This document shows positions 27,758 to 46,209 of a DNA stretch of 64,000 nt, one piece after another. The stretch covers positions 2,247 to 66,246 of the IMG/VR virus record IMGVR_UViG_3300028485_000003; one strand, given 5' to 3'. Made by a program: the position numbers and the translations under genes. The notes below the pieces were generated by a model. That model worked only from the letters and a program-made list of their open reading frames with translations, was not told where the DNA came from and did not search any database. Position 1 is the stretch's first letter; each line of letters opens with the position of its first letter. The stretch is from a virus. Taxonomy: Duplodnaviria; Caudoviricetes.

Positions 27758-29512
27758 TCAGACTCGGACGGTGCCGGTCAGCAGCGCCGACGAGGAGCCG
27801 TTGACGTTGAAGCCGACCGTGTACCGGCGGGACTCGTGCCCGACCTTCGCGATCAGGTGCGCCTCCTCCGACCACGCCGCCGTGTGATCGTTGGTCGAGT
27901 TGAGGACGCTGTCGCGGACGACGCCGAGGTCGAGGGTCATGCCGTTGCCGTGGATGAACGTGCCGGCGGCGTAGATGAGGAAGTCCACCGTGGTCGGCCA
28001 GGCGGTCATCTTGGTGGCGTTGCCGAACTGGCTGGTGCCGCGGACCTGCCAGTCGTTGACCCACTGGACGGCGATGTTCCGCGAGGTGAAGTACCGGTTC
28101 ACCTCGCTGAGCGGGATGTCGCCCAGTTCGACGCCGGCCTTCCAGGCGAGGTCGGCCTGGATGACGTCGCGGACCCAGTACGGGAAGACGACCTCGAGGA
28201 CGTCCTCGATGCACATGCCGTAGCGGGCCCGGTAGTCGGTGGCGGCGAGGCCGACCGCGTTGTAGATCCGTGGGGCCGCGGCGTCGGTGGCGGTGCCGCC
28301 GATGGAGGTCGCGGAGGTGGAGCGGGCGAGCATGAGCGCGATGAGGCGGGCGTTGATGACGTGCGCGTGCGCGGCCATCAGGAGTTGCAGGGTGTTCTGC
28401 GTCGACTCCGGGTAGGCGTCGTCGGTGAGGTTGCCCGCGGTCAGGCAGTAGCCGTATGCCTCGAGCCTCTCCTCGTCGAAGTCGGGGCAGGGGACGCGCA
28501 TGCACGGCTTGGTGGGGGAGCCGGTGGCGGCGGCGATGTCGTCGGCCTCGGTCCACAGCCACGGGTTCGACTCGTTGCTGAACGTGGCGGCGAATCCAGC
28601 GAAGGCGTCGCCGCCGGCGAGGGCGTCGGCGAGGCTCGGGGAGACGGGGAACTGGATGCCGCCGCGGGTGACGCCGAAGGTCGGCAGGTCGATCATGCCG
28701 GACTCGCAGGCGATGTTGAAGAAGTCGTAGCGCGTCTCGGACGGCGCGCACCAGCCGCCGCCTGCGACGAGCGCGGCCTGCTTGTCGGGACCGGTGAGGT
28801 AGTGGATGAGGTCCTTGATCTCGCCGCGGGTGGTGCGGTTGTCGACGCTGTGGGAGAAGTCGTTGCGGACGGACGCGACGAGCTGCTCGCTGGGCTGCCC
28901 GGAGGTGACCGGCATCGACTTGGCCTTGCGGGCCGTGACCTCGGCGAGCGCGGTGAGGCTGGTGATGCCCTCGCCGCGGGCGACGCCGGGGATGTCGACG
29001 GAGGCGGTGACGGCCAGGCGCTGCTCGCGGACCTGGGGGGTGGGGGCGTGCTGCGCGGTCTCGGCGAGGCTGGCGGTGGCGCGGCGGGCGATCTCCTCGG
29101 GGCGGACGCTGCCGCCCTTGCGGTCCATCATCAGCGTGGCCATGCCGGCGGTGACACCGCGTGCGGCGGCGGCGGCGATGGCTTCGATGTCGACGGCCGG
29201 GGCCTGCTCGGCCTGGGCCTGGGCGGTGGGGGCGCCGTTGACGCGGGCCTGGAGCTGGGAGAGCTGGTCGGCGACGCGGGCCTGCTGGAGGGAGGCCTGC
29301 TGTTCGGCGCGGACCTCGCGGACGCGGAGTTCGGCGCGGATGCGGTCGAGGTCGTCGGTCAGGCGCATCGCGTAGGCGAGCGTGTCGGGCTCGACGTTGT
29401 CGAGGCCGCTGACGCGCTCGAACTCGGTGACCGCGCGGGTCTCCAGCTCGGTGAGGTCGGTGTCGGACGCGAGGGTGAGATCGGACGGGGCGCTGAACAG
29501 CTCGTCGGCCAC
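27758..29512 (-). CDS. Major capsid (hexamer) protein with N-terminal scaffold-like region
   Basis: Coiled-coil N-terminus; ALVAGGGWCAPSE, GVTRGGIQF motifs recalled from mycobacteriophage cluster-B-type capsids. Confidence 0.8.
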   Translation of the reverse strand: MADELFSAPSDLTLASDTDLTELETRAVTEFERVSGLDNVEPDTLAYAMRLTDDLDRIRAELRVREVRAEQQASLQQARVADQLSQLQARVNGAPTAQAQAEQAPAVDIEAIAAAAARGVTAGMATLMMDRKGGSVRPEEIARRATASLAETAQHAPTPQVREQRLAVTASVDIPGVARGEGITSLTALAEVTARKAKSMPVTSGQPSEQLVASVRNDFSHSVDNRTTRGEIKDLIHYLTGPDKQAALVAGGGWCAPSETRYDFFNIACESGMIDLPTFGVTRGGIQFPVSPSLADALAGGDAFAGFAATFSNESNPWLWTEADDIAAATGSPTKPCMRVPCPDFDEERLEAYGYCLTAGNLTDDAYPESTQNTLQLLMAAHAHVINARLIALMLARSTSATSIGGTATDAAAPRIYNAVGLAATDYRARYGMCIEDVLEVVFPYWVRDVIQADLAWKAGVELGDIPLSEVNRYFTSRNIAVQWVNDWQVRGTSQFGNATKMTAWPTTVDFLIYAAGTFIHGNGMTLDLGVVRDSVLNSTNDHTAAWSEEAHLIAKVGHESRRYTVGFNVNGSSSALLTGTVRV

Positions 29513-29703
29513 GGTGTCCTCCGGATCGAAGGGTGTTGTGCGCCCAGATGTTGGCGCCCTTTTGACCGGAGGTTAGCGCATAGCACACAGACCGGCAAAG
29601 ATCAAAATATCTTCACCGGTCCGCATAATAGAAGGTCAGAGGCTTGCCGGAGGCGGAGGCGGAGGCTTCGGCCGCCGCTTCTTATTGCAACTGCACACGC
29701 TGT

Positions 29704-32661
29704 TCACCTCCCCCCAGGATGGACCCGACGCGACAGCATCCGCATCACGATCCGCACCGCATCCCGCTCCAGATCCGACTGCGACCGCCCCCACGCCACC
29801 GTCGGCCGGCCCGCCGCAAGCAGCGCCTGCGGCTCCCCACTGGCCACCCGCGCGCGCATCTTCGGCACCGGGAAACCAGGCACGTTCACCGCCAGCAGCC
29901 CGACGAGCCGCAACTGGCCGCCGATCCGCCGCCAGTCGCCGGACACCTGGCCCGCGGCCTGGAGCTCGTACACCTTCAGCGGATCCGCGCCCGGCCGGAC
30001 CGCACCCGCCACCCAGATCCCGTTCGCGTCGTTGCCGACCGCCACATCCGCCACCGCGGCGCCGGTGTTGTCGTAGTGCTCCGCCGCCGGTGACGCCCCC
30101 AGGTGCAGCGGCGCGTGCCCGGTACCCACGGTGATCTGACCGACCGCCACCCGCGTCCCGTCCGCGCACACGACCTCGCCGGTGCGGTAGTACGGGTGCT
30201 GCTCTTCGTGCGGCGGCTGCACGCACACGTCCTCCTGCCCGATGTGGCAGGCCCCCCACTGCGCGGCGTGCCCGTAGATCCGGCCGTCGTCCGTGACCGT
30301 GATCGGCGTCGGCAGCGACAGATTCGGGTCGGAGAACCAGGCGGCCGGAGGGCGCCACATCTCCGCGGACGCGGTCAGCTCGGGCACGGACCGCAGCGGC
30401 TCCCGCTCCTCGTCTCCGGCGCCCTGGAGTTCCAGGAGTTCGGCCGCGGTGACGGGCTGCCCGCCGGCCACGACCGCACCGGCCTCGTCGAGGAGCGCGA
30501 TGTACGCCTCGGCGAACGCCGGGATATCCACGAGGGTCGCGGCACGGATCCGGCCGCCGTGGAAGATGACCTTCTCGGGCTGGGCGAACAACATCTCGAA
30601 CATGTCCGGCTCGTCGCCCTGGTCGTCGCTGTCGCCGGTTCCGGCGTTGACGTCGTCGGGCCACACGAACTCCGTGTCCGCGTCGGCGATGGAGTCGGCG
30701 TCGATGCTCACCCCGCGGAGGAACTTGCCTTCGATCTTCGCGTGGACGCGGCGGCCGTCCTCGTCGGACAGGTCGAGGACTCCGGAGCCCATGACCTTGC
30801 TGCCGTCGCGCCAGATCCGGTCGATGCGGCCCACGTTGACGGCGATGGTGCGGGGCTCGCCGCCGTGGGAGTCTTCCTTGTTCCAGCGCAGGGGGATGGG
30901 CAGGTCGGCCCAGGTGAGGGCGCCTTCGGCGAACTCGCGGCCGTCGCCGGTGACGATGCCCTCAACGGCGAGGGGGCCCTCCCACGGGGCGGTCTGGCCG
31001 CCGTAGTCCATGCTGTCGTCGTCGGGCTTGTTGTCCTCGCTCTTGTCGTCGTCCATCTCGGCGCACGCCGCGTCGGCCTCCGCCTGCGTGGCGAAGCAGC
31101 CCGCGAGTTCGCCGTCTTCGTCGGTGACGGCCCACGGCGTTTCGGCACCGCAGTCCGGGTGGTCCTGCACTGTGCGGAACACGGTGCCTCCCTGCTCGTG
31201 ATCGTTGGGTGGGATTGTGGCCGCAGCAAGCGCCATGATCGTTCCGGCCGCGTCCTGCTCGGCGTCTTCGTCCTCGTTCCACACCGCGACCACGAACCCC
31301 CGGCAGCGGTCGCCGCCCTGGCAGTCGGTGTAGCCGCCCGTCGGGTACGCCGCGCGCGCTTCGGCCAGCGACGCGTAGCGGGTGCCGTCCACATCCCGGC
31401 ACGGGCCGCATGAGCTCTTGTCGAGGGCTTCCGTACTCACATAGGTTCCGGGCGGGGCGACCGCGAGGACGGCCATGCGGCCCTCGTTCTGCGCCGCCGA
31501 CATCGCACCCCCGACCGCCTGCCGCACCGAAGCGTCGGACAGGTCGGCGAGGTGCTCGTCGACCTGAGCCGCAACCTGGTCGGGGCTGCCGGAGCCGAAC
31601 AGGCGCATCGCCCGGCGCACCCCCGAGGCGACGAGGTTCGCCCCGGTGAGGCGGGCCGTCGTCCGGGCCACCTGCCTGATCCGATCCCGGAACGCCGCCG
31701 CGACGACAGCCTCGTCGTCCAGCGACCACTCCGGCACCGTGACGCCCTGCGCTTCGGCCTCCGCCTGCTGGGCTTCTCCCGCCTCCCGCGCGTAGCGGAT
31801 CATGCGTGCGGTCAGCAGGGCGGCGGCCGATTCGGTGTCCACGGTCAGGTCGTCCAGCGCGGCCAGGTTGTCAGCCTCGGCGGCAGCCTGGACAGCAACG
31901 GTGATCTCCTCGCGCTGCGCCCGCTGGATGTCCGCCCACGCTGCGATCGTGTCGTCGACGGCCTGGTGCCAGGCCTGGTCCATGGCGGCGAAGTCGATGC
32001 GGGAGCGGGTCTCCAGGTCGGTGGGCTGACGGCGCAGCGGCCCGGCCGCAGCGGTGATGCTGCCGCTGAGGGGGATGTCCGTGTGGTCCCCGGCGAACGC
32101 GACCCGCACCCGGTCGAAGGTGACCGGGCCGAGACGCTCCTCCAGCGCGATGATCAGGTCCAGCTCGGACGAATACGCTGCACAGACGTGGGCGACCCAG
32201 GGCGTATGCGGCGCGGGCAACTCCACGTCCATCGGCGCCATCAGCAACGCCTCTTCGGCCATCTCGTGCGCGGCCTCCAGCGAAGGGCCTTGCTCCGCAT
32301 CGTCGCCGACGGACCACACCCACGACGGCTCGTCACCGTTGCCGTTCCAGTGCGCGGCGCCGAACAGCTTCGACCTGATCGGCGGCATTCCCTGGGCGAG
32401 ATGGCGCACGGAGTCCACGATCGTGGCGCGCGCGCTCTCGTCGAAATCGGCGCCCTTGCCCAGGTATCGGAGCGTGCAGTGCAGCTGCTCGGCGTCCTCG
32501 CCGCCCTCGATCGCCAGCCGGGCCGCGTCCTCCGCCGTGGGCATCAGCGCGATCATTGCGCCGGATGTGTGCGAGCCGTCTGCCGCCGCAGTCAGCTGCG
32601 CCAGACCCTCCCGGCTCACGAAGTCCCGGAGGTCCGGCCGGCTACCTGCGCGCGTACCCAT
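29704..32661 (-). CDS. 2H phosphoesterase + MuF-like + maturation protease/scaffold fusion
   Basis: N-terminal HCTL and HVCA motifs; MuF-type QNEGR...CGPC...CQGGDRCRG; C-terminal domain positioned between portal and capsid genes. Confidence 0.7.
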   Translation of the reverse strand: MGTRAGSRPDLRDFVSREGLAQLTAAADGSHTSGAMIALMPTAEDAARLAIEGGEDAEQLHCTLRYLGKGADFDESARATIVDSVRHLAQGMPPIRSKLFGAAHWNGNGDEPSWVWSVGDDAEQGPSLEAAHEMAEEALLMAPMDVELPAPHTPWVAHVCAAYSSELDLIIALEERLGPVTFDRVRVAFAGDHTDIPLSGSITAAAGPLRRQPTDLETRSRIDFAAMDQAWHQAVDDTIAAWADIQRAQREEITVAVQAAAEADNLAALDDLTVDTESAAALLTARMIRYAREAGEAQQAEAEAQGVTVPEWSLDDEAVVAAAFRDRIRQVARTTARLTGANLVASGVRRAMRLFGSGSPDQVAAQVDEHLADLSDASVRQAVGGAMSAAQNEGRMAVLAVAPPGTYVSTEALDKSSCGPCRDVDGTRYASLAEARAAYPTGGYTDCQGGDRCRGFVVAVWNEDEDAEQDAAGTIMALAAATIPPNDHEQGGTVFRTVQDHPDCGAETPWAVTDEDGELAGCFATQAEADAACAEMDDDKSEDNKPDDDSMDYGGQTAPWEGPLAVEGIVTGDGREFAEGALTWADLPIPLRWNKEDSHGGEPRTIAVNVGRIDRIWRDGSKVMGSGVLDLSDEDGRRVHAKIEGKFLRGVSIDADSIADADTEFVWPDDVNAGTGDSDDQGDEPDMFEMLFAQPEKVIFHGGRIRAATLVDIPAFAEAYIALLDEAGAVVAGGQPVTAAELLELQGAGDEEREPLRSVPELTASAEMWRPPAAWFSDPNLSLPTPITVTDDGRIYGHAAQWGACHIGQEDVCVQPPHEEQHPYYRTGEVVCADGTRVAVGQITVGTGHAPLHLGASPAAEHYDNTGAAVADVAVGNDANGIWVAGAVRPGADPLKVYELQAAGQVSGDWRRIGGQLRLVGLLAVNVPGFPVPKMRARVASGEPQALLAAGRPTVAWGRSQSDLERDAVRIVMRMLSRRVHPGGR
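31214..31247 (-). promoter_or_regulatory. Putative internal late promoter within the MuF fusion gene
   Basis: CCGGAACGAT-N18-CACAAT, followed by GGAGG SD and in-frame GTG at 31182. Confidence 0.5.
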
Positions 32662-34438
32662 TGCTGCTCCGAGTCGTCGTCGAGAAGAAGCCGCTGGTGT
32701 CCATGAGCGGGGCGTGCCGGCCGATCGTGAACCGGCCGAAGCTGTCGAGGCGGGCCTCGTACACCCCGGACGTCCCCGGCCGCGGCAAGCTGTGGAGCTT
32801 CAAGGCGGCGTGCGTGAACGGACAGCTGTAGGCGTGCTGTGCGCACAGGCCCGGGTGCAGCAACTCCGGCGGCCGGCCCGTCGCGAACTTCACCGCGTGC
32901 AGCACCTGCGCCTGCTGCACCAGTCGTTCCTGACGCGCGGCCGCCGCAGCCTGCCGGGCCTGCTCCGCCCCCGGTGGCTCCCCGGCGTTCGGTGCGTCCC
33001 GGGCGTCCGGCTCTGGCGGCTCGGGCTGGTCGGCCTGCTCCGCGGCCTCGGCTGGTGTGGCCGCGGCGACGGGGGTGATGTCGACGCGCTCGCCGATGAG
33101 GGTGGACAGTGCGGACCCGGCGCCGGACGGCAGCGTTTTGATGATGACCTTGAGGGCTTGCTCCTTGAGTTCCTCGTCGCTCGGCTTGTCCGCTTCGTCG
33201 AAGCCGGTCTCGCGGCGAAGCGCGGCGCCGTCGATCTCCAGCCGGTCGTACAGCTGGATGGCGTTGTCGGAGCGGTCGGGGCGCAGGGTGAGCTCGGACA
33301 TGTCGTACCAGACGACCCACGACGCCCAGTCCTCCACATGGGAGGCGCGGAGGCGGGGCTGAAGGTAGCCGGTGGTGATTGCCTGGCAGATCGTCTCGGC
33401 GTCCGGCGCGATGTTCACCTTCAGCGATGTCTCGTCGACGGCCCAGGCGTTCCAGTGGTTGAGATCGCCCATGCCGAGGAGGACTTCGGGCGGGATGTTC
33501 AGCTGGGTCGCGAGCCGCTTGATTGCGGACTCGCGCTTGTCGATGATCTTGTCGTCGATCTGCAGGGTGAAGTCCAGGTGCCGGATCTTGTCGACGTACT
33601 CGGCAGGCACCTTGATCGGGATCGGCACCGTCGCGGCCGCCGTCCCTGGGGTGCGGATCGCCTCCGCCGCGATCTCGATCCACTCCGCCATGAACGGATC
33701 CGGCGCGTCCGCGAACTCCTCCCGCACCGGAAATGTGATCTCGTCCGGGACCAGCCACACACCGGCCGACGCCAGCCGGGACAGGTACTGGGCGACGATG
33801 TGCCGGTTGACCAGCTCTAGCTCACGCATCGTCGTGCGCGCCGCCCGGGCGGGGCTGTCGGCGAGGTGGTGATATCGCTTGTTCGGCTTCCACACCCGGA
33901 TGGGCGGCATCGAGTCCTGGGCGAGGGGCCGCCAGTTGTGGCCGGTGGTGGGGCTGTTCTCGTCGATGACCTCGTAGTGGCCGCGCGCCGCCCGCACCTC
34001 GTCGATGGAGCGGACGGACCACTTCTCGATACCGCTGGCGTTCTCGACGATGAGGTAGCCCTCGCCGGGCACGGTGAGCTGGGTGCCGAGCCCGTCCATG
34101 ATCTGAGCCTGTCCGGCCGGGCCGCCCGCGAACTGCGTCATCAGGTCCACGGCGGTGCCGGCCTTCGCGCGGACGGGCTCGTCGACGCCGGGCTCGAGCT
34201 TCGCCGCGTAGAGGCGGACGCGGGAGAGCATCTTCGATTCCCAGTCGACTGCGTACCGGAATTCGCCGAGGGCGTCGTGGAATTGCCAGACCTCCTCCTG
34301 CCACATGTCGGTGGTGCGGAGGAGGTGGGTGCGGGGTTCTTTGACGGGGGCTGCGGCGGCGGTGAGGGCTGGTGGCTGGAGGGGTGGGGCTGCGGCGGGC
34401 AGGGGGCCGCGTCGAGTAAAGGTGTGCCACCAGGCCAC
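32642..34438 (-). CDS. Portal protein
   Basis: About 598 aa after terminase; SRLASAGVWLVPDE, LNIPPEVLLGMGDLNHW; GGAGG SD before GTG. Confidence 0.85.
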   Translation of the reverse strand: MAWWHTFTRRGPLPAAAPPLQPPALTAAAAPVKEPRTHLLRTTDMWQEEVWQFHDALGEFRYAVDWESKMLSRVRLYAAKLEPGVDEPVRAKAGTAVDLMTQFAGGPAGQAQIMDGLGTQLTVPGEGYLIVENASGIEKWSVRSIDEVRAARGHYEVIDENSPTTGHNWRPLAQDSMPPIRVWKPNKRYHHLADSPARAARTTMRELELVNRHIVAQYLSRLASAGVWLVPDEITFPVREEFADAPDPFMAEWIEIAAEAIRTPGTAAATVPIPIKVPAEYVDKIRHLDFTLQIDDKIIDKRESAIKRLATQLNIPPEVLLGMGDLNHWNAWAVDETSLKVNIAPDAETICQAITTGYLQPRLRASHVEDWASWVVWYDMSELTLRPDRSDNAIQLYDRLEIDGAALRRETGFDEADKPSDEELKEQALKVIIKTLPSGAGSALSTLIGERVDITPVAAATPAEAAEQADQPEPPEPDARDAPNAGEPPGAEQARQAAAAARQERLVQQAQVLHAVKFATGRPPELLHPGLCAQHAYSCPFTHAALKLHSLPRPGTSGVYEARLDSFGRFTIGRHAPLMDTSGFFSTTTRSSNGYARR

Positions 34439-34635: not shown

Positions 34636-35070
34636 TCACGCCCACTCCTGCGCCGCCAGCAACGCGCCCGCGCCCCACACCGCCGCCCACACCAACACCG
34701 GCAGCGGCAGACCGGCCGTCGCCCACACCCCTGCCGTCACCCCGGCCGCGACCCAACCCGACGCGCACCAGGGGCAGGAGATCAGCTCAGCCAGCCAGAA
34801 CGGCGACCGCTTCCACCGACGCCCGTAGATCTGCAACTCCCCGTCGACGAGGCTGAACATGCCGAGACCAGCGACGGCCCTCAGACAGCCCTCCTCGACT
34901 TCCCCCTGCGGGTACAGATCGTGGTGCTGCTCCTTCATCGTCGGCTCGCGCCACCCGCCGACGAGCCGGTCCCGCAGCCACAGCACCGGCGGAAACGTGT
35001 CCTCCACCACCAACTTCGTCCCCCGGTACGTCGCCAGCGACATCACAACCAGCAGCAGCCACACATCCAT
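34636..35070 (-). CDS. DUF1360-like membrane protein
   Basis: LATYRGTKLVVEDTF...LISCPWCASGWVA. Confidence 0.7.
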   Translation of the reverse strand: MDVWLLLVVMSLATYRGTKLVVEDTFPPVLWLRDRLVGGWREPTMKEQHHDLYPQGEVEEGCLRAVAGLGMFSLVDGELQIYGRRWKRSPFWLAELISCPWCASGWVAAGVTAGVWATAGLPLPVLVWAAVWGAGALLAAQEWA

Positions 35071-35732
35071 CACACGCCACCCCTCAACCACACCGACTTC
35101 TGGTGAGTCGTCGGAACGGCGCAGTCCACATGCACCGGCACGCCCACACAGCCCAGCCGCCAGCAGAACGACAGATCCTCACCCACCAGATTCCCCGCCC
35201 CATCGACCACTGGGTCGAACCACGACCCGTACTCAACTCGATCCAGCGCCATCCGGTGCACCAGCAGGCAGGCCGCACCCGTCCCCGCCACCCGCACCAG
35301 TCCCGACGGCACAGGCCCTTCCCACTCCGTGAAGACCTTCGCCTCCTCGGCTCGGCCGTGCAGCGTCGGGAAGACCCGCGTCACCACACCACCCATATCG
35401 TCCGGCTCGCCCTCGACCACCCCGTAGCAGAGCGCACCCACCACCGGCCGCTCCCGCGGGTCAGCGGTCGCGAGCAGCTGGTGCAGCGCGTCCGGCCGGA
35501 AACCCATGTCCGTGTCGACGAACCACAGCCACTCCCCGTCTCCCGCCAGGAACTCGGCGACCGCCTGGTTGCGGACGTGGGCGATCCCGGCCGGCCGGAA
35601 CCGCACCGGCATCACCCCGACAATCACCGGCCCGTCCGACGAGCGGTCGTGGCTCATGGCCAACATCAGCGACTGCATGAACGTGTGCTGCACCCACCCG
35701 GGATGCACATAGGTGACGACGACTCCGCGCAT
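35070..35732 (-). CDS. Glycosyltransferase, GT-A fold (GT2-like)
   Basis: VRNQAVAEFL...WLWFVDTDM...GAACLLVHR...GEDLSFC. Confidence 0.8.
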   Translation of the reverse strand: MRGVVVTYVHPGWVQHTFMQSLMLAMSHDRSSDGPVIVGVMPVRFRPAGIAHVRNQAVAEFLAGDGEWLWFVDTDMGFRPDALHQLLATADPRERPVVGALCYGVVEGEPDDMGGVVTRVFPTLHGRAEEAKVFTEWEGPVPSGLVRVAGTGAACLLVHRMALDRVEYGSWFDPVVDGAGNLVGEDLSFCWRLGCVGVPVHVDCAVPTTHQKSVWLRGGV

Positions 35733-35737
35733 GCCGG

Positions 35738-37147
35738 TCACCGTATCCGTCCTCCGGCGATCTGCTTTCTGGCCAGATCCCCGCCCAACGAACCCTGCCC
35801 GCGGGTCATCGTGCCGACCAGCCGCATGTGCCATGGTCCCCAAACGGCTGCGTCGAGGCGATCCGGTGACCAGCCCAGCTCGGGATACCAGGTGCACAGC
35901 TGCTCTTCGAGCTCCTCGAACTTCCCGGCATGGTGCCAGCGTCCCTGCGCCGACAGTGCGGCGACCGGCTGTGCCCGCACGGCCTTGCCCTGTGTCGCGC
36001 GTACCTTCCGCACCGGGATGTCCACGCCGACCTTCTCCATCGCCGTCCGAATCACAGCGATCGCTTGGTCCCCTCCGTAGTTAATTTCTACGCATATGTC
36101 CTCGGCCTCCCAGTCGATCGCGGCCCGCACCGCACGCTCGCCCCACCCCTCCGGCGGCAGGTGGCACGACCGGTCGTCCAGGACAAACCCGTGGTGCTGC
36201 GGACGCTGCTGCACCGGCCGCGCCTCGTCCGGGTCCGGGTCAGGCGCCGGCAGGGCGCCGGGCAGGAACAGCCCGGACTTCGCGGTGACGACGATGCCCT
36301 GCTCCCCGGCACCGCCGGACGGGTCGACGCCGACGGTGCGGCGGATCGTGCCGGGCAGATCGTCCAGCCGGATCCGTGAGGCGGCCAGGTTTTTCCTACG
36401 CCAGAAGGCGTTGGCCATCTCGTCGAGGATTTGCCCGTACAGCTCCTGCTCGCCGAGGTCGGTACCGCCGTAGGCGTCCTCGAGCATCTGCCGGATGTGC
36501 TCGGGGAGGTGGGGGTTGTTGTACATGGTGGCGTGGGTGGTGACCACGCCGGGGATCTCTCCGGCTTTCAGCCGGCCCAGGAGCGGCTTCGGCTTGGGGG
36601 TGGTGGAGGCGACCCAGTGCGGGCGTGGCCCGGAGCGGAGGCCGAACCGCAGTTGATCGAAGGACTGCTGCATGTACCGCCAGGCGGCGAACTCTTCCAG
36701 CCAGGCGACGCAAGTATTTCCCCCGGCCCGGAGTCGCTCTACGTCCTCGGGGTTGCTGGCCCCGTACAGCTTGGCCTGGCTGCCGTTAGCCCAGCGGACG
36801 ACGGTGCCGCCCGCGGTGGTGATGGGGCCGGATGCGGTGGGGTCGTGGGCTTTGATGCCGGACGGGCCGGACACGCAGGCGGTGACGGCGTCGCCTTGGG
36901 TGGGGGCGATGATGCCGACCCAGTGGGGGATGGGGCCGGGGAGGCAGGGTGGTCCGGCGACGTGGCGGGCGATGTATTCGGCGCAGGCGTCGGTTTTCCC
37001 GGCGCCGCGGCCGGCGAGGAGGAGCCATCCGTACCAGTTGCCGGGGGGCGGTATCTGGTGCGGGAGCGGCGTCCAGCTCGGCTTGAGTTGGGCAGCGAGG
37101 AGGGCGGCGGCGCGTTGTGCGATGCGGGCCCGGTCCTCGGTGGTCAT
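35738..37147 (-). CDS. Terminase large subunit
   Basis: Walker A AGRGAGKT, Walker B WLEEF, nuclease GVDP...PDRLDA. Confidence 0.92.
   Translation of the reverse strand: MTTEDRARIAQRAAALLAAQLKPSWTPLPHQIPPPGNWYGWLLLAGRGAGKTDACAEYIARHVAGPPCLPGPIPHWVGIIAPTQGDAVTACVSGPSGIKAHDPTASGPITTAGGTVVRWANGSQAKLYGASNPEDVERLRAGGNTCVAWLEEFAAWRYMQQSFDQLRFGLRSGPRPHWVASTTPKPKPLLGRLKAGEIPGVVTTHATMYNNPHLPEHIRQMLEDAYGGTDLGEQELYGQILDEMANAFWRRKNLAASRIRLDDLPGTIRRTVGVDPSGGAGEQGIVVTAKSGLFLPGALPAPDPDPDEARPVQQRPQHHGFVLDDRSCHLPPEGWGERAVRAAIDWEAEDICVEINYGGDQAIAVIRTAMEKVGVDIPVRKVRATQGKAVRAQPVAALSAQGRWHHAGKFEELEEQLCTWYPELGWSPDRLDAAVWGPWHMRLVGTMTRGQGSLGGDLARKQIAGGRIR
35740..35772 (-). promoter_or_regulatory. Putative late promoter variant (leaderless)
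   Basis: CCAGAAAGCA-N17-TACGGT-N7-ATG(35732), overlapping the terminase 3' end. Confidence 0.45.
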
Positions 37148-37153
37148 GGGTGG

Positions 37154-37186
37154 ATTGTGGCTTCCGGTTGAGGCGGGGCTTTCCGG
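37154..37186 (-). promoter_or_regulatory. Putative late promoter variant (leaderless)
   Basis: CCGGAAAGCC-N17-CACAAT-N6-ATG(37147). Confidence 0.55.
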
Positions 37187-37253
37187 AACGGGGCCGGGCC
37201 GTCTGCTCGTACGCTGGAGAGGCGCCAGGGTTCATGAGGCCCCATTGACCCGT

Positions 37254-37285
37254 TGGCGGCCCGGGAAGAAGCGCGCAGGCCGCCA
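37254..37285 (-). terminator. Stem-loop at end of the sugar operon
   Basis: TGGCGGCC...GGCCGCCA immediately after the TAA at 37287. Confidence 0.45.
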
Positions 37286-37286
37286 C

Positions 37287-37910
37287 TTATCGACGTAGGC
37301 GCCCGCGGGTTCTGGCTCCGGGGCGGGCGTCGCCGCGGTTGGGTTGGCCGCTGGAGTTCGCGCCGTGGTGGTGCCAGGTCCACGTGCGCGCGGGGTGGTG
37401 GACGATGCGCGCTCCGGCGGCGAGGCATCCGAGGGTGAAGTGCCAGTCCTCCCCGCCTCGCTGGCCGCCGACCATGCTGCCGGCGGGCGGCTGGCGGAAG
37501 CCCACCTGTTGGGCGAGGTCGGTGCGCACCAGGATGGTGATGGTGGTCTGGTGGGGGTGGGCGTCGTCCCAGGGCTTCCCGAAGAACATGGGGAAGGGGT
37601 CGGAGCCGCCCTTCACGCGGAACCAGGGGTACACGTAGTCGGCGCTGGTGTCGCGGGCGCAGGCGAGGAGCTGCTCGATGTGGTCCGCGTCCATCTCGTC
37701 GTCTGAGTCGAGGAACGCGGTCCACTCGGTGTCGACGAGTTCGAGGCCTGCTTGTCGGGTGGTGGCGGCACCCTTGCGGTGGATGTCCTCGGCGAGTTGG
37801 AGGTGGACGGGGATGGTCTGCTGTTGGACGGAGCGGGTGGCGCGGTCGAGGAGTCCGCTGCGCCGTCGGGCCTCATGAAACGGGACGACGACGGTGACGC
37901 CGGGCTTCAC
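37287..37910 (-). CDS. Glycosyltransferase family 2
   Basis: VTVVVPFH, WTAFLDSDD (DxD), GGEDW. Confidence 0.85.
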   Translation of the reverse strand: MKPGVTVVVPFHEARRRSGLLDRATRSVQQQTIPVHLQLAEDIHRKGAATTRQAGLELVDTEWTAFLDSDDEMDADHIEQLLACARDTSADYVYPWFRVKGGSDPFPMFFGKPWDDAHPHQTTITILVRTDLAQQVGFRQPPAGSMVGGQRGGEDWHFTLGCLAAGARIVHHPARTWTWHHHGANSSGQPNRGDARPGARTRGRLRR

Positions 37911-38089
37911 GGCGCGTCCTCGCCGCCGTCCTCGGCAGCAGCGTGCTCCGCTAGGTGCTCCTGGACTGAGGCTGTGCTGAACGTGACCGATGCCGTGGCG
38001 CGGCCCGTCATGCGGAGGGTGAGCGGGATGGTCAGGGTCTTGCCGCAGCCAGGGCAGTCCACCTGCGCGGTTGCGTCGTCTGCTCTCAT
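37907..38089 (-). CDS. Small zinc-ribbon-like protein
   Basis: VDCPGCG...EHLAEH; coupled within the sugar operon. Confidence 0.55.
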   Translation of the reverse strand: MRADDATAQVDCPGCGKTLTIPLTLRMTGRATASVTFSTASVQEHLAEHAAAEDGGEDAP

Positions 38090-38523
38090 CGCGGCGTCCC
38101 CTTCCACAGGATCTCGTTGTCGCCTTGCACCCGCAGCTCCAGCGTCTTCCACAGCCGGATGCCGTAGTCGGCGTTCGCCGCGAAGTGCCCGTCGAAGTAG
38201 TGGAACGACTCCACGCACCAGAAGCTGACGTGCGTCGGATCCGCCCACGCATGCCACGTCCCGCTGAGCGCGTTCGGCACCCGAACCTCGAACACGCCGC
38301 CCGGGCGCAGCACCCGGTGCGCCTCGTTCATCACCGCCAGCCGCGGATCCCCGGCCGGGATGTGCTCCATCACGTGCGCGGCCCGGATCGCCTCCACCGT
38401 CCGGTCGCCGGTCGGCCACGGGGTGTCCTGCGCCAACCGCTTCCAGTCGCCGTGTCCGTTGCGGGAGTCGAGGTTCGTCCACCCCGCAGGCACGATGTGC
38501 CCGCCGCCGATCTCCAGCTTCAC
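38086..38523 (-). CDS. Class I SAM-dependent methyltransferase
   Basis: KLEIGGG motif I, AHVMEHI, RVLRPGG. Confidence 0.85.
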   Translation of the reverse strand: MKLEIGGGHIVPAGWTNLDSRNGHGDWKRLAQDTPWPTGDRTVEAIRAAHVMEHIPAGDPRLAVMNEAHRVLRPGGVFEVRVPNALSGTWHAWADPTHVSFWCVESFHYFDGHFAANADYGIRLWKTLELRVQGDNEILWKGTPR

Positions 38524-39182
38524 GAGTGCCGTCCGCTTCCCTCGTACCGCAGCCACTGGTTCCCCAGGTGCGAGCCCGGGAGCGCGGCCGGGCGGAGCCG
38601 CGTCTTACGCAGCACGTACGGCTGTGACACCTGGTCCCGCGACGACCCGGCCTCGATCTCCTTCGCCCACATCGCACCCATCCGCTTCACCGCCGGCGTG
38701 TGCTGGCGGGCGATCACCCCGGACGCCCACAGCCCCCACTGCTCGGGGTGCTTCGCCTTCCGGTACCGGGCCACCTGCCATGCGGCGATGCCGTCCGGGT
38801 CCATGCCCAGCCGGGCGACCTCGGCGGCCTCGCTGTAGAGGCAGTCCCGCCACGGGTGGACGAACTGGGCGATCGGGTCGGCGAGGGCCAGGACTTCGAG
38901 GGCGAAGGTGGGCGAGGTGATGCGGTAGCTGGCGTCCACCCAGATGCTGGCGGGGGCGTCGGTGTACCGCCAGGGTTCCAGCTTCGGCGTCTTCGCTGCG
39001 CGCACCGGGGGGAGCTCCGGCCGGGGCTCGTGCACGACCGTCCACCCGCGCGCCGCGTCGGCGTCCGGGACGGTGTCGGTGACGAGGATCCACTCCACGT
39101 CCACACCCGACTGCCGCAGCACCGGCTTCACCGTGTCGTACCCGTCGAAGACTGCGCTGATGATCGCTACGTCTGCGGTCAC
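38520..39182 (-). CDS. DUF616-like putative glycosyltransferase
   Basis: FDGYD, IWVDAS, HPWRDCLYSEA, RDQVSQPYVL. Confidence 0.7.
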   Translation of the reverse strand: MTADVAIISAVFDGYDTVKPVLRQSGVDVEWILVTDTVPDADAARGWTVVHEPRPELPPVRAAKTPKLEPWRYTDAPASIWVDASYRITSPTFALEVLALADPIAQFVHPWRDCLYSEAAEVARLGMDPDGIAAWQVARYRKAKHPEQWGLWASGVIARQHTPAVKRMGAMWAKEIEAGSSRDQVSQPYVLRKTRLRPAALPGSHLGNQWLRYEGSGRHS

Positions 39183-40009
39183 TTGTACCACCTCACCACT
39201 TCTGCGATCCGGTCCCAGTCCAGGCCGGGCTTCCAGTCCAGCCGCTCCCAGCCCTCGCCCTCCGCGGTGATCTGCACCGGCACCTCACCCGGCCGCATCG
39301 GCAGGTGCTCGACACCGGCCGTGGACCCGGTCACCTCCAGCACGAACGCGGCCAGCTCGTTGACCGTCACCGGCACCCCGGTCCCGGCGTCGAACGTGAC
39401 ATCGTCGCCGTGCTCCACAGCCTCGACGAGCATGCGGCCCACGTCGTCGGAGTGCACGAGGTCGATGGCCTGCTCCCCATCACCCCAGATCGGCAACGGG
39501 CGCCCCTCCCACGCGGCACGCGCGAACGTCGGCACGATCTTCTGCGGGTGCCCGGGCCCGTGCGCCTGGTGGGGGCCGTATCCGTTGAACGCGCGGACGG
39601 TGGCCACGCGCAGTCCGTACGCCTGATGCCAGGCGGTCGTCAGCCGGCGGGCGGCGACCTTCGTCGCGGTGTACACGCTGGGGAAGGGGTCCGGCATGCT
39701 GATGCCGACGTAGCCGGCGTGGTGGTCGCGGCACCACTGCAAGATGCGGAGGGTGCCTTTGATGTTGACGTCGAGGGCGGTCTCCGGCATGTCGAACAGC
39801 TCGGACGTGCCGAGGACTCCGGCGAGGTGGATGACCACATCGGCGTCGGCGAGGGCGTCGAGTGAGCCGAGGACGTCGTGGCCGAGGGTGTAGTCGAACG
39901 GCCACACCTCATGCCCGGCGGCCTCGGCGGCCTGGATGGTGGCGCGGCCGAAGAAGCCGGCCCCGCCGGTGACTGCGAGTTTCAAGGGTGTCTCCTGGTT
40001 GTTCACCAT
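39179..40009 (-). CDS. NAD-dependent sugar epimerase/dehydratase/reductase (extended SDR)
   Basis: TGGAGFFG, YTATK (YxxxK), FNGYGP. Confidence 0.88.
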   Translation of the reverse strand: MVNNQETPLKLAVTGGAGFFGRATIQAAEAAGHEVWPFDYTLGHDVLGSLDALADADVVIHLAGVLGTSELFDMPETALDVNIKGTLRILQWCRDHHAGYVGISMPDPFPSVYTATKVAARRLTTAWHQAYGLRVATVRAFNGYGPHQAHGPGHPQKIVPTFARAAWEGRPLPIWGDGEQAIDLVHSDDVGRMLVEAVEHGDDVTFDAGTGVPVTVNELAAFVLEVTGSTAGVEHLPMRPGEVPVQITAEGEGWERLDWKPGLDWDRIAEVVRWYK

Positions 40010-40680
40010 GGGGTGCGGCCCCACTTCTGTCGGAAGGTCTCCCGGTCCCGCACGGTCTGCGCTTCGAGCTCGGGCCGCTCGTACAGGGAGCCGTTCGGGC
40101 ACCGGTGGTCCACCGGGATGCCGGGCACGAGGAGCGCACCGCCTGCCTCACGGGCCTGCCAGTCGAGATCATCGTCCGAGTACCACCAGGCCATGGACTC
40201 GTCGAGGCGCAGCCCGTGCTCGCCGCGCAGCATGTACGCGAAGCCGGTGATCCGCTGCCGCAGATCGATCGGGCCGGCCTTCGTGTGGAGGATCTGCTGT
40301 CGGCCGCCGTGCTGGTCGGGGAAGGCGAGGACCGCGGTGGTGCAGCGCATCGCGGTCGACAGTGACTCCACCCAGCCGGGCGGGACGACGACGTCGTTGT
40401 TGAAGACGGCGATGTCCCACGCCGTAGCGCCGGCCGCGTGCGCGTTGCTGTCGGCGAGGGCGATGCCCACGTTCCAGAACGTGGAGATGTTCGGCGGATC
40501 CAGGGGGAGCCGGACAACAGCCACCTTGCCGTGCCACTGCTCCGCGTCCACCGGCGGATCGGACAGGTTGTCGACGATGATGACCTGGTCGACCTGATCC
40601 ACGACCGAGCCGACGCACTCGGTGAGGAGATCATGCCGGTCCCGGGTGGGGATCACCGCAGCCCTGAACGCGCCGCTCAC
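40003..40680 (-). CDS. Glycosyltransferase family 2
   Basis: VIPTRDR, IIVDN, VFNNDVV, WYSDDDL. Confidence 0.85.
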   Translation of the reverse strand: MSGAFRAAVIPTRDRHDLLTECVGSVVDQVDQVIIVDNLSDPPVDAEQWHGKVAVVRLPLDPPNISTFWNVGIALADSNAHAAGATAWDIAVFNNDVVVPPGWVESLSTAMRCTTAVLAFPDQHGGRQQILHTKAGPIDLRQRITGFAYMLRGEHGLRLDESMAWWYSDDDLDWQAREAGGALLVPGIPVDHRCPNGSLYERPELEAQTVRDRETFRQKWGRTPW

Positions 40681-41339
40681 CGGGCGTCCGCCTGCGCGTG
40701 CACCGCGGCCCGCAGCAGCGAGTCCGGCGTACCCATGTCCGACCACACACCCGGCACCTCGTGCACGTCCATGAGGCCGTGCTGCAGGTACCAGTTGTTG
40801 ACGTCGGTGATCTCCAGCTCGCCGCGCGCCGACGGCACCAGACCACGGACCACGTCGAACACCCGGTCGTCGTACACGTACAGGCCAGTCACCGCGAGGT
40901 CCGAGGTGGGGTCCTTGGGCTTCTCCACGATCCGGCCGGTGCCCGGCTCGTACACACCGAACGCCTCCGGCCGCTCCGTGCGGGCCGTGTAGATCGCAGG
41001 CCGGTCCGGCATCGTCATGTCGGCGGCGAAGTAGTTGTCGCCGAGGACTACCGGGAACAGGCCGTCGGTGAAACCCTCCGCCTGCGCGAGCGCCCCCGCG
41101 ATCCCGTCGGGCCGGTCCTGCACCCGGTAGGTGAAGCCCGAGCCGAGCAGCTGCGCGAACCCGCCGACGTTCTCCCCGCCGGTCACGATGAGGATGTCGG
41201 TACAGCCCATCGCCTGGAGCGTGGCGATCGGGTAGTAGATCATCGGCCGGTCGTAGACGGGCAGCAGATGCTTGTTGACCACGCGGGTGGTCTCGCCGAG
41301 CCGGGTACCGCGGCCACCCGCGAGGATCACGCCCCTCAC
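40677..41339 (-). CDS. rmlA: Glucose-1-phosphate thymidylyltransferase-like nucleotidyltransferase
   Basis: ILAGGRGTRL...NKHLLPVYDRPMIYYP, QDRPDGIAGA, LGDN, VEKP, GELEITD. Confidence 0.85.
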   Translation of the reverse strand: MRGVILAGGRGTRLGETTRVVNKHLLPVYDRPMIYYPIATLQAMGCTDILIVTGGENVGGFAQLLGSGFTYRVQDRPDGIAGALAQAEGFTDGLFPVVLGDNYFAADMTMPDRPAIYTARTERPEAFGVYEPGTGRIVEKPKDPTSDLAVTGLYVYDDRVFDVVRGLVPSARGELEITDVNNWYLQHGLMDVHEVPGVWSDMGTPDSLLRAAVHAQADAR

Positions 41340-42364
41340 GACTGCACCTGGGCAGGCTCCAGCCACGCCGGCCGGTCGCAGTACCAGTCGACGATGTCCT
41401 TCAGCGTCTCCTCGAGGGGGCGGCTGGGCCGCCATCCGGCATCGGCGAGTTTCGTCCCGTCGAGTGCGTACCGCAGGTCGTGTCCGGGGCGGGAGGCGTG
41501 GAAGGACACCAGCTCGTAGTGGAGGGGCTTGCCGATGATGTCGGCGATGATCTGCGCGACTTCGAGGTTGGAGCGCTCCTCGCCGACGATGTGCCACATC
41601 GACGGCCGGTCGTGGGTGGGGTAGCGCTGCGGTGTGGTGTGGTCGAGGAGGTGCATCCAGGCTGCGGCGAACTCGCGGGTGTCGATCCAGTAGCGGCTGC
41701 CGGGTACGCCGTCCGGGGACGAGTAGATCGGCACGGTCTCACCGGCGAGGACTTTCCGGATGACGGTGGGTACGAGTTTCTCTCCGCCCTGCCCGGGGCC
41801 GATGAGGTTCATCGTGCGGGTGAGGACGACGGGCACGCCGTAGGTGCGCCACCAGGCGGTCGCGAGCGCGGACTGGCTTGCCTTGGAGGCGGCGTATGGG
41901 TTGGAGGGGATGATCGGGTCCCATTCGCGGTGGGCGTATCCGGTGGGGGCTGGGCCGTACACCTCGTCGGTGTCCATCTGGAGGAACGCTCGGGGTTGTA
42001 CGCGGCGCGCGTACTCCAGGAGGTTCGTCATCAGCTCGGTGTTGTTGCGGACGAAGCTGACGGGGTTGGCGATGGAGTCCTCGACGCCGCTGTTGGAGGC
42101 CACGTTGAGGATGTAGTCGATGGGGCCGATCTCGCGGGCGAGGCTGTCGGGGATCGGGGTGGCGAGGTCGTGCATGACGGTGACGACTCGCTGATTCCAC
42201 GCGCCGGGCTCGGGGGCGTGATCGAGGGCGTCGGTGACGCGTTGGGAGTTGCCGCGGTGGCGCAGCGTCCATGGCAGGACGATGTCGGCGTCGGTGTGGG
42301 TGAGGAGGTGGGTGAGGACGTGGGAGCCGACGAATCCGCTGGCGCCGGTGAGGAGGATACGCAT
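41336..42364 (-). CDS. rmlB: dTDP-glucose 4,6-dehydratase-like
   Basis: TGASGFVG, TDEVYG, PSNPYAASKA, RPGHDLRYALD. Confidence 0.88.
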   Translation of the reverse strand: MRILLTGASGFVGSHVLTHLLTHTDADIVLPWTLRHRGNSQRVTDALDHAPEPGAWNQRVVTVMHDLATPIPDSLAREIGPIDYILNVASNSGVEDSIANPVSFVRNNTELMTNLLEYARRVQPRAFLQMDTDEVYGPAPTGYAHREWDPIIPSNPYAASKASQSALATAWWRTYGVPVVLTRTMNLIGPGQGGEKLVPTVIRKVLAGETVPIYSSPDGVPGSRYWIDTREFAAAWMHLLDHTTPQRYPTHDRPSMWHIVGEERSNLEVAQIIADIIGKPLHYELVSFHASRPGHDLRYALDGTKLADAGWRPSRPLEETLKDIVDWYCDRPAWLEPAQVQS

Positions 42365-42371
42365 GGCGGGG

Positions 42372-42404
42372 ACGGTAGAAGCCGCCCCGGCATGATCATT
42401 CCGG
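42372..42404 (-). promoter_or_regulatory. Putative late promoter (leaderless) of the sugar operon
   Basis: CCGGAATGAT-N17-TACCGT-N7-ATG(42364). Confidence 0.7.
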
Positions 42405-45810: not shown

Positions 45811-45854
45811 TGCTGCCCCCTTGGTGCGGTTCCCTCTGGCGATGACTCCAGTAT

Positions 45855-45912
45855 GTAGGCCTACGCATTGCCCTGTCAATAGGCCTACACGTATCTCTTA
45901 CGGTAGGGCTAC
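45855..45912. promoter_or_regulatory. Triple operator-like repeat
   Basis: Palindrome GTAGGCCTAC (45855), ATAGGCCTAC (45879), GTAGGGCTAC (45903), spaced 24 bp. Confidence 0.65.
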
Positions 45913-45933
45913 GCATCGTGCCAAGATGGGGGC

Positions 45934-46209
45934 ATGCCAAAGGACTACGCGCCGCCCCGAGACGCCGCCGACACGTTCGCCCGCTACAAGGCCCACTACG
46001 AAGGCGAGCGCGCACTCAAGCCCGACATGCTGGAGTTCGCCGACCGCGAGCTGAAGGCCGGCGCCACCGTCGGCCAGCTCGCCGCGTGGACCGGGCTCAC
46101 ACCCGAGGTGTTCCGCCGCCGCGCCCGCGCGCTGGGGGTCGAACGGAAGAGGCCACCGACCGTGGGCAAGCTCGCGCGCCCGGCGAGCAGCGAGGAGACG
46201 ACCACATGA
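45934..46209 (+). CDS. Small HTH-like protein
   Basis: GATVGQLAAWTGLTPEVFRRRAR. Confidence 0.65.
   Translation: MPKDYAPPRDAADTFARYKAHYEGERALKPDMLEFADRELKAGATVGQLAAWTGLTPEVFRRRARALGVERKRPPTVGKLARPASSEETTT

Follow-up and report, generated by a model that had tools for sequence, protein, structure and literature searches.

A nucleotide-sugar and glycosyltransferase cassette in the packaging operon of a temperate Streptomyces phage lineage: a candidate system for virion glycosylation

Results

The cassette and the packaging operon

The DNA analyzed here (the window) is a stretch of 64,000 nucleotides, bases 2247-66246 of the 66,246-bp linear IMG/VR virus record IMGVR_UViG_3300028485_000003, which has a G+C content of 70% and a completeness estimate of 75%. 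In this phage, we found a cassette of genes for nucleotide-sugar enzymes, glycosyltransferases (GTs) and a methyltransferase (MT). As transcribed, the order of the genes is a terS-like gene, an RmlB-type short-chain dehydrogenase/reductase (SDR1), an RmlA-type nucleotidyltransferase (NT), GT2a, a second short-chain dehydrogenase/reductase (SDR2), a TOD1/MUCI70-like GT, the MT, a 60-aa CxxC protein and GT2b, and it continues on the 3' side with the large terminase (TerL), a further glycosyltransferase (GT3), a DUF1360 membrane protein and the portal protein (Table 1). Searches with Pfam, PHROG and NCBIfam profiles upheld the proposal of a first-pass annotation that a cassette combining nucleoside diphosphate sugar (NDP-sugar) genes, multiple GTs and an MT is embedded in the packaging/structural operon. 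As judged from the relatives described below, the cassette is genuine and has been maintained throughout the lineage.

The codon-position GC content (GC3 frame plot) placed every gene between about 46 kb and 12 kb on the minus strand. Since all cassette genes lie on this strand, transcription runs from 42953 to 35070, and the order in the first-pass annotation is that of descending coordinates; the genes it had listed are present (hidden Markov model support plus GC3 plot), but all of them are minus-strand genes. A plus-strand reading of the region was considered and rejected on the basis of the GC3 plot, by which the long plus-strand open reading frames are high-GC artefacts.

When start codons were picked at the frame transitions, nine stop-to-start junctions (those from SDR1 through GT2b and those of TerL-GT3-DUF1360) were free of gaps, and seven of the nine are GTGA or ATGA overlaps, which confirms the translational coupling suggested before. 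The NT start overlaps the SDR1 stop and the GT2a start overlaps the NT stop as GTGA, the gene of the CxxC protein has ATGA/GTGA overlaps on both sides, and GT3 has GTGA overlaps on both sides. GT2a and SDR2 overlap by 7 nt, and SDR2 and the TOD1-like GT abut or overlap by 13 nt. Spacers were seen before SDR1 (31 nt) and before TerL (139 nt).

Table 1. Genes of the cassette, neighboring genes and other features of the region (window positions unless a contig is named)
Feature	Positions	Strand	Profile matches and remarks
SDR1, RmlB-type NDP-glucose 4,6-dehydratase, 342 aa	41336-42364	-	PF01370 Epimerase 1.8e-41; TIGR01181 5.5e-58
NT, short-form RmlA-type glucose-1-phosphate thymidylyltransferase, 220 aa	40677-41339	-	PF00483 6.7e-39; TIGR01207 1.8e-53
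GT2a, soluble GT-A, 225 aa	40003-40680	-	PF00535 2.4e-07; phrog_22332
SDR2, atypical short extended SDR, 276 aa	39179-40009	-	PF01370 2e-34
TOD1/MUCI70 (DUF616)-like GT, 223 aa	38520-39191	-	PF04765 3.4e-09; phrog_26101 1e-13
MT, minimal class I S-adenosylmethionine (SAM) methyltransferase, 145 aa	38086-38523	-	Methyltransf_23 2.3e-06, Methyltransf_11; phrog_6636 2.5e-08
CxxC protein, 60 aa	37907-38089	-	phrog_2622 2e-07
GT2b, GT-A, 207 aa	37287-37910	-	phrog_14775 1.3e-47
GT3, accessory GT-A, 223 aa	35070-35741	-	phrog_34859 4e-11; PF00535 15 bits
Additional GT, 462 aa	11945-13333	-	phrog_7162 2.5e-30; adjoins endolysin
Major capsid protein, hexamer-type	27758-29512	-	phrog_777 4.5e-126
Major tail protein candidate	26150-26821	-	phrog_792 3.2e-36
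terS-like gene, 185 aa	42396-42953	-	phrog_3678 (unknown function) 1e-07
TerL, 469 aa	35738-37147	-	phrog_2 2.4e-18
DUF1360 membrane protein	34636-35073	-	PF07098 4.9e-09; phrog_781
Portal protein	32642-34306	-	PHROG
P4H-type 2-oxoglutarate-Fe(II) oxygenase replacing NT	L005:2462-3115		PF13640 1e-14; SDR1 present
UDP-glucose/GDP-mannose dehydrogenase-like gene	L006:11208-12962		SDR1 and GT2b present, without core
Repeat array with sigma70-like site	45850-45914	-	
Hairpin downstream of GT2b	37255-37284	-	
A+T-rich untranslated region	29513-29703	-	
Fibre-like protein, 263 aa	25334-26125	-	
Intein in MuF/protease-like gene	L024:16861-20816		PF14890
Endonuclease VII-type gene	L026:14971-15498		

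A consensus scan, by which Streptomyces promoters are poorly captured, detected no sigma70-like promoter and no intrinsic terminator in or beside the cassette. According to the first-pass annotation, a promoter-like motif is common to the first gene and the structural genes. However, pattern searches and a direct-repeat scan, in which the 31-nt spacer before SDR1 was compared with other upstream regions, revealed no shared motif above chance. The sole sigma70-like site found upstream (TTGACA, 18 nt, CATACT; 45879-45850) is located on the same strand 3.5 kb upstream, with tightly packed genes between.

This site lies amid three GCGTAGGCCTAC-type elements, each with the 10-bp palindrome GTAGGCCTAC, at a spacing of exactly 24 nt. 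With a small plus-strand gene (45934-46209) on one side and the long minus-strand operon on the other, it resembles an operator array or a genetic switch, and it holds the only plausible promoter found upstream of the cassette. At the other end, a G+C-rich hairpin (GGCGGCC, 16-nt loop, GGCCGCC) without a T-run was seen 3 nt past the GT2b stop, within the 139-nt spacer before TerL. RNA processing or attenuation at this hairpin could set the cassette apart from TerL.

Nucleotide-sugar enzymes

SDR1 scored below the TIGR01181 equivalog cut-off (196.6 vs. 365.1 bits). Its 10 best PDB matches were all dTDP-glucose 4,6-dehydratases (8e-44 and weaker), and its TDEVYG and YxxxK (PYAASK) motifs aligned with those of PH0414 (2hun). 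We classify SDR1 as a divergent RmlB-type member, which may use a dTDP- or a UDP-sugar.

NT was also below its equivalog cut-off (TIGR01207; 181.5 vs. 360.65 bits). It covers positions 1-235 of the 286 profile positions, and thus the C-terminal subdomain of long-form RmlA is missing. The GGRGTRL nucleotide-binding motif was found at residues 7-13. The best PDB match (2.3e-54 over residues 1-213) was a 269-residue glucose-1-phosphate thymidylyltransferase chain (3hl3/4ecm), which we take to be the Bacillus anthracis enzyme.

In SDR2, the GGxGF motif, D39, S104, Y113 and K117 are conserved and the loop between strand 5 and YxxxK is shortened to 9 residues (Ser-Tyr spacing 9). When the AlphaFold 2 (AF2) model (pLDDT 86.7) was compared with known structures by Foldseek, the top matches were the 4-epimerases Mth375, GalE of T. 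thermophilus and T. maritima, UDP-GlcNAc 4-epimerases and Rv3634c. The first reductase (GDP-4-keto-6-deoxymannose reductase) followed at rank 15, but the E-values of epimerases, dehydratases and reductases were within three orders of magnitude of each other. SDR2 looks at least as 4-epimerase-like as ketoreductase-like in its modeled fold. Of the two roles previously offered for this enzyme, epimerization is matched by the fold neighbors, which are mostly NDP-sugar 4-epimerases, whereas ketoreduction gained less from them.

A complete RmlABCD pathway to dTDP-L-rhamnose was not found. PF00908 (RmlC) had no match in the whole 66-kb record, and the control search was positive in 11 of 14 genomes; on RmlD_sub_bind, SDR2 reached 17 bits at a cut-off of 27. 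Both findings agree with the earlier statement that neither rmlC nor rmlD is recognizable. The genome of the host S. caniscabiei itself encodes two rmlC genes, both with short stretches that match the phage NT region at the DNA level no more than 2 kb away.

Glycosyltransferases, methyltransferase and CxxC protein

The four GTs of the cassette and of the TerL-DUF1360 interval are small (207-225 aa), and GT2a, GT2b and GT3 carry DxD-type motifs. Inspection of the four translations by eye revealed no hydrophobic stretch, and among the cassette proteins there was no match to a polyprenyl-phosphate GT, a flippase or a ligase. GT2a is 57% identical to gp109 of Streptomyces phage KimJongPhill, and GT2b, the most conserved GT of the slot, is 65% identical to gp107 of the same phage. 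The DxD motif of GT2b is part of FLDSDDE. For its AF2 model (pLDDT 81.9), the nearest PDB structures were TarP, TarS and RmlT (E about 1e-10; TMq 0.65-0.69; TMt 0.24-0.47; identity 15-21%). The TOD1-like GT scored above the PF04765 cut-off (36.9 vs. 21.4 bits), with coverage of profile positions 141-290 of 314 only. GT3, with its DxD motif in FVDTD, corresponds to the further GT that had been predicted between terminase and portal; among the relatives compared it occurs in L005 only and it is absent from the S. caniscabiei prophage. PDB sequence searches with the TOD1-like GT, GT3 and an additional 462-aa GT of the window yielded no relative. The 462-aa enzyme shares phrog_7162 with KimJongPhill gp6, which is located in an SDR-MT-GT set just upstream of TerL, and it may be part of the same glycosylation system despite a distance of 24 kb.

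The translation of MT has motif I (LEIGGG) and motif III (LRPGG). The protein previously described as a zinc ribbon exists as a 60-aa CxxC protein; its match to Zn_ribbon_Brz was below the cut-off (17.2 vs. 27.9 bits), and a single CxxC is visible. Its gene had no tblastn match in L003-L007 and no DNA match in the S. caniscabiei prophage segment.

Relatives and variability of the slot

Five IMG/VR contigs (L003-L007), one of which has terminal repeats and a completeness of 100%, carry the terS-like gene, SDR1, a variable cassette, GT2b, TerL, the DUF1360 gene and the portal gene. A prophage of S. caniscabiei NE06-02D is collinear over about 18 kb (70-80% nucleotide identity) and has the full set minus GT3; among the relatives with a full set it is the closest. 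The same slot holds the cassette in three prophages, those of S. caniscabiei, S. chartreusis (CP108114) and Streptomyces sp. NBC_00444 (CP107916), as well as in many soil contigs. We classify the phage as temperate, with prophage copies of its lineage in these three Streptomyces genomes. The core GT2a-SDR2-TOD1GT-MT-GT2b occupies this slot in most neighborhoods inspected; L006 has GT2b without the core. At the protein level, SDR2 is represented by at least 120 clusters at 66% identity or more, and GT2b by 651 clusters at E<=1e-5, which are named from many Streptomyces species.

The supply genes vary. Both SDR1 and NT are present in the window, L003, L004 and the S. caniscabiei prophage. SDR1 was the only one in the S. 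chartreusis prophage, and NT was the only one in L024, L025, two further soil contigs and the Streptomyces sp. NBC_00444 prophage. In L005, an oxygenase gene replaces NT, and L006 has a sugar dehydrogenase-like gene beside SDR1 (Table 1). NT and SDR1 are thus gained and lost independently while the core stays, which indicates that they are accessory supply genes. Taken over the lineage, the slot between the terS-like gene and TerL behaves as a variable, swappable glycan island.

The genes that frame the slot are more constant. The terS-like gene lies directly upstream of the cassette in all relatives compared (L003-L007, L012). Its protein had no match in Pfam and NCBIfam searches, and the nearest named protein-atlas clusters are small terminases (0.83/0.77), a weak lead only. 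The putative label small terminase draws on position and on this lead. The DUF1360 gene was kept in all relatives reaching that far, including L006 with its different cassette. TerL is 42-43% identical to TerL of Streptomyces phages mu1/6 and OnionKnight. No close relative was found among cultured phages, and the identity of the capsid protein to that of any of them was at most 34%. PHROG searches also returned the portal protein, a MuF/protease fusion, a hexamer-type major capsid protein, a major tail protein, a head-tail adaptor and an endolysin, and we assign this part of the genome to the late region of a siphovirus-like actinophage.

Discussion

Comparison with known glycosylation systems

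To our knowledge, glycosylation of phage virions has been shown experimentally for only a few mycobacteriophages, whose virion O-glycosylation operons were reportedly described by Freeman et al. (2023; Cell Host Microbe 31:1216). Operons of this kind are reported for Che8 (gp108-110), Corndog (gp35-38) and Myrna (cited in PMC12619734 and PMC13313380). Like Che8 and Corndog, the window has a cluster of small phage GTs with an MT inside or directly beside packaging or head genes, a GT adjacent to the MT, and capsid and tail proteins with Ser/Thr-bearing C-termini. In Corndog, gp34 and gp39 flank the MT and three GTs, and the major head gene follows shortly after; in Che8, terS and TerL are the first two genes on the left (genes 1-2), and gp108-110 are located at the right genome end. 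The GT domain of gp108 (residues 6-193) and GT2b are both assigned to phrog_14775 (1.2e-36 and 1.3e-47, respectively), and direct comparison of the two proteins gave a marginal hhalign result (E 9.8e-05, probability 58%) and a BLASTP E-value of 4.7e-04. Che8 gp108 is a GT-MT fusion, and here the MT is encoded just upstream of GT2b with only the 60-aa gene between them.

There are also clear differences. The GTs of the window match only phrog_22332, 26101, 14775, 34859 and 7162, and matches to phrog_854, 1721 and 4447 were obtained for Che8 and Corndog. The MT is of a different family, the cassette adds RmlA, RmlB, SDR2 and a TOD1/MUCI70-like GT, and the host is a Streptomyces. No similarity was detected when MT was compared with Corndog gp35 and GT2b with Corndog gp38 (E 5.2) by BLASTP, and tblastn searches of 50,697 phage records with GT3, MT, GT2b and the TOD1-like GT returned no mycobacteriophage match. 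For Che8 and Corndog glycosylation is proven, whereas here it is predicted from the genes.

Closer counterparts were found in the Streptomyces phages KimJongPhill and Zuko (Zukovirus; genes 4-6 and 106/107-109). These phages have an orthologue of SDR1 (46% identical) followed by an MT and a GT, and orthologues of GT2a (57%) and GT2b (65%) in a GT-MT-GT set; the phrog_7162 GT is common to both systems. KimJongPhill genes 4-6 are located two genes upstream of TerL (gene 8) and portal. Unlike the window, however, KimJongPhill and Zuko have no RmlA-type NT, SDR2 or TOD1-like GT, and their genes are split between the genome ends. In KimJongPhill (82.5 kb), we found no match to a tyrosine integrase or a serine recombinase. 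The glycosylation genes of both phages are annotated only, and a literature search yielded no paper on virion glycosylation of Streptomyces phages, on the Zukovirus glycosylation genes or on the cassette.

The supply genes have counterparts elsewhere. Thymidylyltransferases of coliphages (Phapecoctavirus and its relatives, such as phAPEC8 and ESCO5) are 43% identical to NT, and among the phages with matches to SDR1, those of Escherichia form the largest group. The 4,6-dehydratase R141 of Mimivirus (PDB 6vlo) also matches SDR1 (1.2e-28). Common to the window, the coliphages and the giant viruses are thus virus-encoded first steps of the dTDP/UDP-6-deoxyhexose route. The previous view, in which NDP-sugar synthesis by a virus is best known from giant viruses, needs to be widened, since many coliphage records carry an annotated glucose-1-phosphate thymidylyltransferase. 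The NT/SDR1 pair differs from the coliphage and giant-virus genes in that it belongs to a temperate actinophage, whose head/packaging operon links it with four or five GTs and an MT, and in that close relatives can do without it.

Possible targets of the glycosyltransferases

By analogy with the mycobacteriophage systems, we consider the phage's own virion proteins the most likely target of a cassette that is probably co-transcribed with the packaging genes, and we put the probability of this reading at about 0.5. It fits best because the position of the cassette corresponds to that in Corndog and Che8, the PHROG of GT2b includes the GT domain of gp108, orthologues occur in a phage without a recombinase match, and only soluble GT-A enzymes are encoded. 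If KimJongPhill is lytic, its orthologues, found without an integrase or serine-recombinase match, argue against lysogenic conversion as general role. The P4H-type oxygenase in the slot of L005 gives a hint of a protein substrate.

The following sequence of reactions can be envisaged. The short RmlA-type NT, assigned to its family by sequence, would convert glucose-1-phosphate of the host to dTDP-glucose, from which the RmlB-type SDR1, whose catalytic motifs are present, would form dTDP-4-keto-6-deoxyglucose. Both enzymes would act as accessory supply, which boosts or uncouples the precursor flux. The core enzyme SDR2 might either reduce the 4-keto sugar to a 6-deoxyhexose or 4-epimerize an NDP-hexose. 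Three to five small soluble GT-A enzymes (GT2a, the TOD1-like GT, GT2b, the accessory GT3 and perhaps the phrog_7162 enzyme) would then build a short glycan in the cytoplasm, and the 145-aa MT would O-methylate one of its sugars. As in Che8 and Corndog, the likeliest acceptors would be the conserved Ser/Thr-rich C-terminal tails of the major capsid and the major tail proteins (NGSSSALLTGTVRV; NVTTTAPPTIACDPTTL). The capsid motif NGS(S/T)SALL(T/S)GTVR is Ser/Thr-rich and kept in the S. caniscabiei prophage. The Thr-rich tail-protein motif WN(V/I)TTT(A/P)PPTxAC(D/N)P(T/S)TL is kept in five phages, the window and four relatives. Judged by this analogy, the C-termini of both proteins are candidate acceptors.

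Several observations weigh against virion glycosylation. No GT of the window matched phrog_854 (gp110/gp38) or phrog_1721 (gp109/gp37), and in pairwise comparisons the enzymes of Che8 and Corndog showed little or no similarity. Ser/Thr-rich C-termini are not specific evidence of glycosylation, and the late timing is deduced solely from the operon structure. The best structural matches of GT2b are the wall-teichoic-acid GTs TarP, TarS and RmlT. Moreover, lipid-linked intermediates on the cytoplasmic side of the membrane are also accessible to soluble GT-A enzymes.

The latter points keep the host envelope alive as a target, although we regard it as unlikely. In this scenario, the GTs would decorate a wall glycopolymer of Streptomyces, teichoic-acid-like or another polymer assembled on a lipid carrier on the cytoplasmic side, and in lysogeny or late infection this would mask receptors against superinfection or prevent the adsorption of progeny to debris. 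GT2b shares the GT-A catalytic domain of TarP and TarS (S. aureus) and of RmlT (L. monocytogenes), which uses a dTDP-sugar (dTDP-rhamnose), and it is this fold neighborhood that leaves the envelope in play. TarP is encoded by S. aureus prophages. Our phage is temperate with prophage copies in three Streptomyces genomes, its additional GT adjoins the endolysin, dTDP-sugars are typical donors for wall polysaccharides, and one host has its own rmlC with phage-NT-like matches nearby. However, GT2b is a bare GT-A domain of 207 aa compared with about 300-600 residues (TMt 0.24-0.47) and thus has no counterpart of the extra residues of TarP, TarS and RmlT. In TarP and TarS, these residues include C-terminal oligomerization and acceptor (polymer-binding) regions. 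GT2b does not occupy a lysogenic-conversion position but belongs to a late packaging operon, in which the cassette is translationally chained; since no promoter or terminator of its own was detected, expression from the prophage is unlikely. Orthologues in a phage without integrase or serine-recombinase match, the failure to find a flippase, polyprenyl-phosphate GT or ligase in the cassette, and the PHROG that GT2b shares with a Che8 virion-glycosylation GT speak in the same direction.

Hypermodification of the phage DNA with sugars, as a protection against restriction, appears highly improbable. Phage GTs with NDP-sugar genes are known to act in this way (Pyle et al. 2024, as cited in PMC12619734), the cassette adjoins the packaging genes, and a ParB-like DNA-binding gene was found upstream of it by PHROG search. 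On the other hand, a hydroxymethylase of the thymidylate synthase (ThyA) family (PF00303) had no match in the 66-kb record, and the control was positive in 10 of 14 genomes. Without such an enzyme there would be no 5-hydroxymethyl pyrimidine to glycosylate, but this absence is not absolute because the record is only about 75% complete. In addition, the phage lives as a prophage that is replicated by the host, and an MT with multiple GT-A enzymes resembles a glycan-building set.

Nature of the sugar and possible role of the slot

The glycan itself may differ from the 6-deoxyhexose considered above. SDR2 could be an NDP-hexose 4-epimerase, while RmlC and RmlD of the host would finish the SDR1 product to dTDP-L-rhamnose, so that the phage would not be self-sufficient and the glycan would be of Gal type and/or contain rhamnose. 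Our confidence in this alternative falls just short of even. The 4-epimerases at the top of the Foldseek list with the first reductase at rank 15, the two rmlC genes of the S. caniscabiei host, and the presence of NT and SDR2 without a dehydratase in soil contigs (including L024 and L025) and in the NBC_00444 prophage are in line with it. However, an SDR fold with epimerase, dehydratase and reductase E-values less than three orders of magnitude apart does not fix the function, the shortened substrate loop is unlike that of characterized epimerases, and the S. chartreusis prophage, which has SDR1 and SDR2 but no NT, is as expected for a dehydratase and a reductase that work as a pair on the product of the host's RmlA. 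Of the self-sufficient pathway that had been postulated, the RmlA- and RmlB-type genes stand, but self-sufficiency itself is doubtful given the independent loss of NT and SDR1, the rmlC genes of the host and the epimerase-leaning SDR2. The term fits at best the variant in the window, and only if SDR2 is a reductase.

If virion proteins are the target, a more far-reaching scenario can be put forward tentatively, and we do not hold it to be the likelier outcome. In this large lineage of temperate Streptomyces phages, made up of prophages and uncultured phages, the slot would serve as a swappable 'glycan serotype' island with its own precursor supply (short RmlA, RmlB, or in relatives the UDP-glucose dehydrogenase or the P4H-type oxygenase), which places a methylated, possibly 6-deoxyhexose glycan on the tail and capsid C-termini. 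SDR2 with its 9-residue Ser-Tyr spacing would then represent a new minimal class of NDP-sugar 4-reductases or 4-epimerases.

Should the cassette glycosylate virions, glycosylated particles would be common among temperate phages of Streptomyces (hundreds of protein clusters, prophages in many species), and phages would contribute some of the nucleotide-sugar supply themselves and change their glycan by cassette swapping. This bears on phage-host recognition and defence in soil and on the shielding or stabilization of phage particles. Compact soluble GTs, a minimal SDR and a minimal sugar methyltransferase could also be obtained from the cassette, and with S. chartreusis and Streptomyces sp. NBC_00444 there are sequenced lysogens in which the question is open to direct testing. 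Our analysis adds the following points: GT2b is linked to Che8 gp108 through a PHROG, NT and SDR1 have been gained and lost independently, the SDR2 fold leans toward epimerases, GT2b has teichoic-acid GTs as structural neighbors, orthologues occur in a phage without a recombinase match, and the Thr-rich C-terminus of the tail protein is conserved.

Additional observations

Four further features were recorded (Table 1). In the genome of otherwise 70% G+C, an unusually A+T-rich untranslated region of 190 nt precedes the major capsid gene, where it might act as an internal promoter or as a leader and allow the capsid protein to be made at a high level. A gene for a 263-aa fibre-like protein separates the major tail protein gene from that of the head-tail adaptor; the S. 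caniscabiei prophage lacks it at the equivalent position. The first 92 aa of this protein correspond to the N-terminus of a 'polysaccharide deacetylase' PHROG, the central part matches a tail-fibre PHROG, and the C-terminus has a Leu/Ala-rich motif followed by TDSTTA. Among the relatives, an intein was seen inside a MuF/protease-like gene of a soil contig (L024), and the Streptomyces sp. NBC_00444 prophage (L026) carries an Endonuclease VII-type gene between TerL and the DUF1360 gene.

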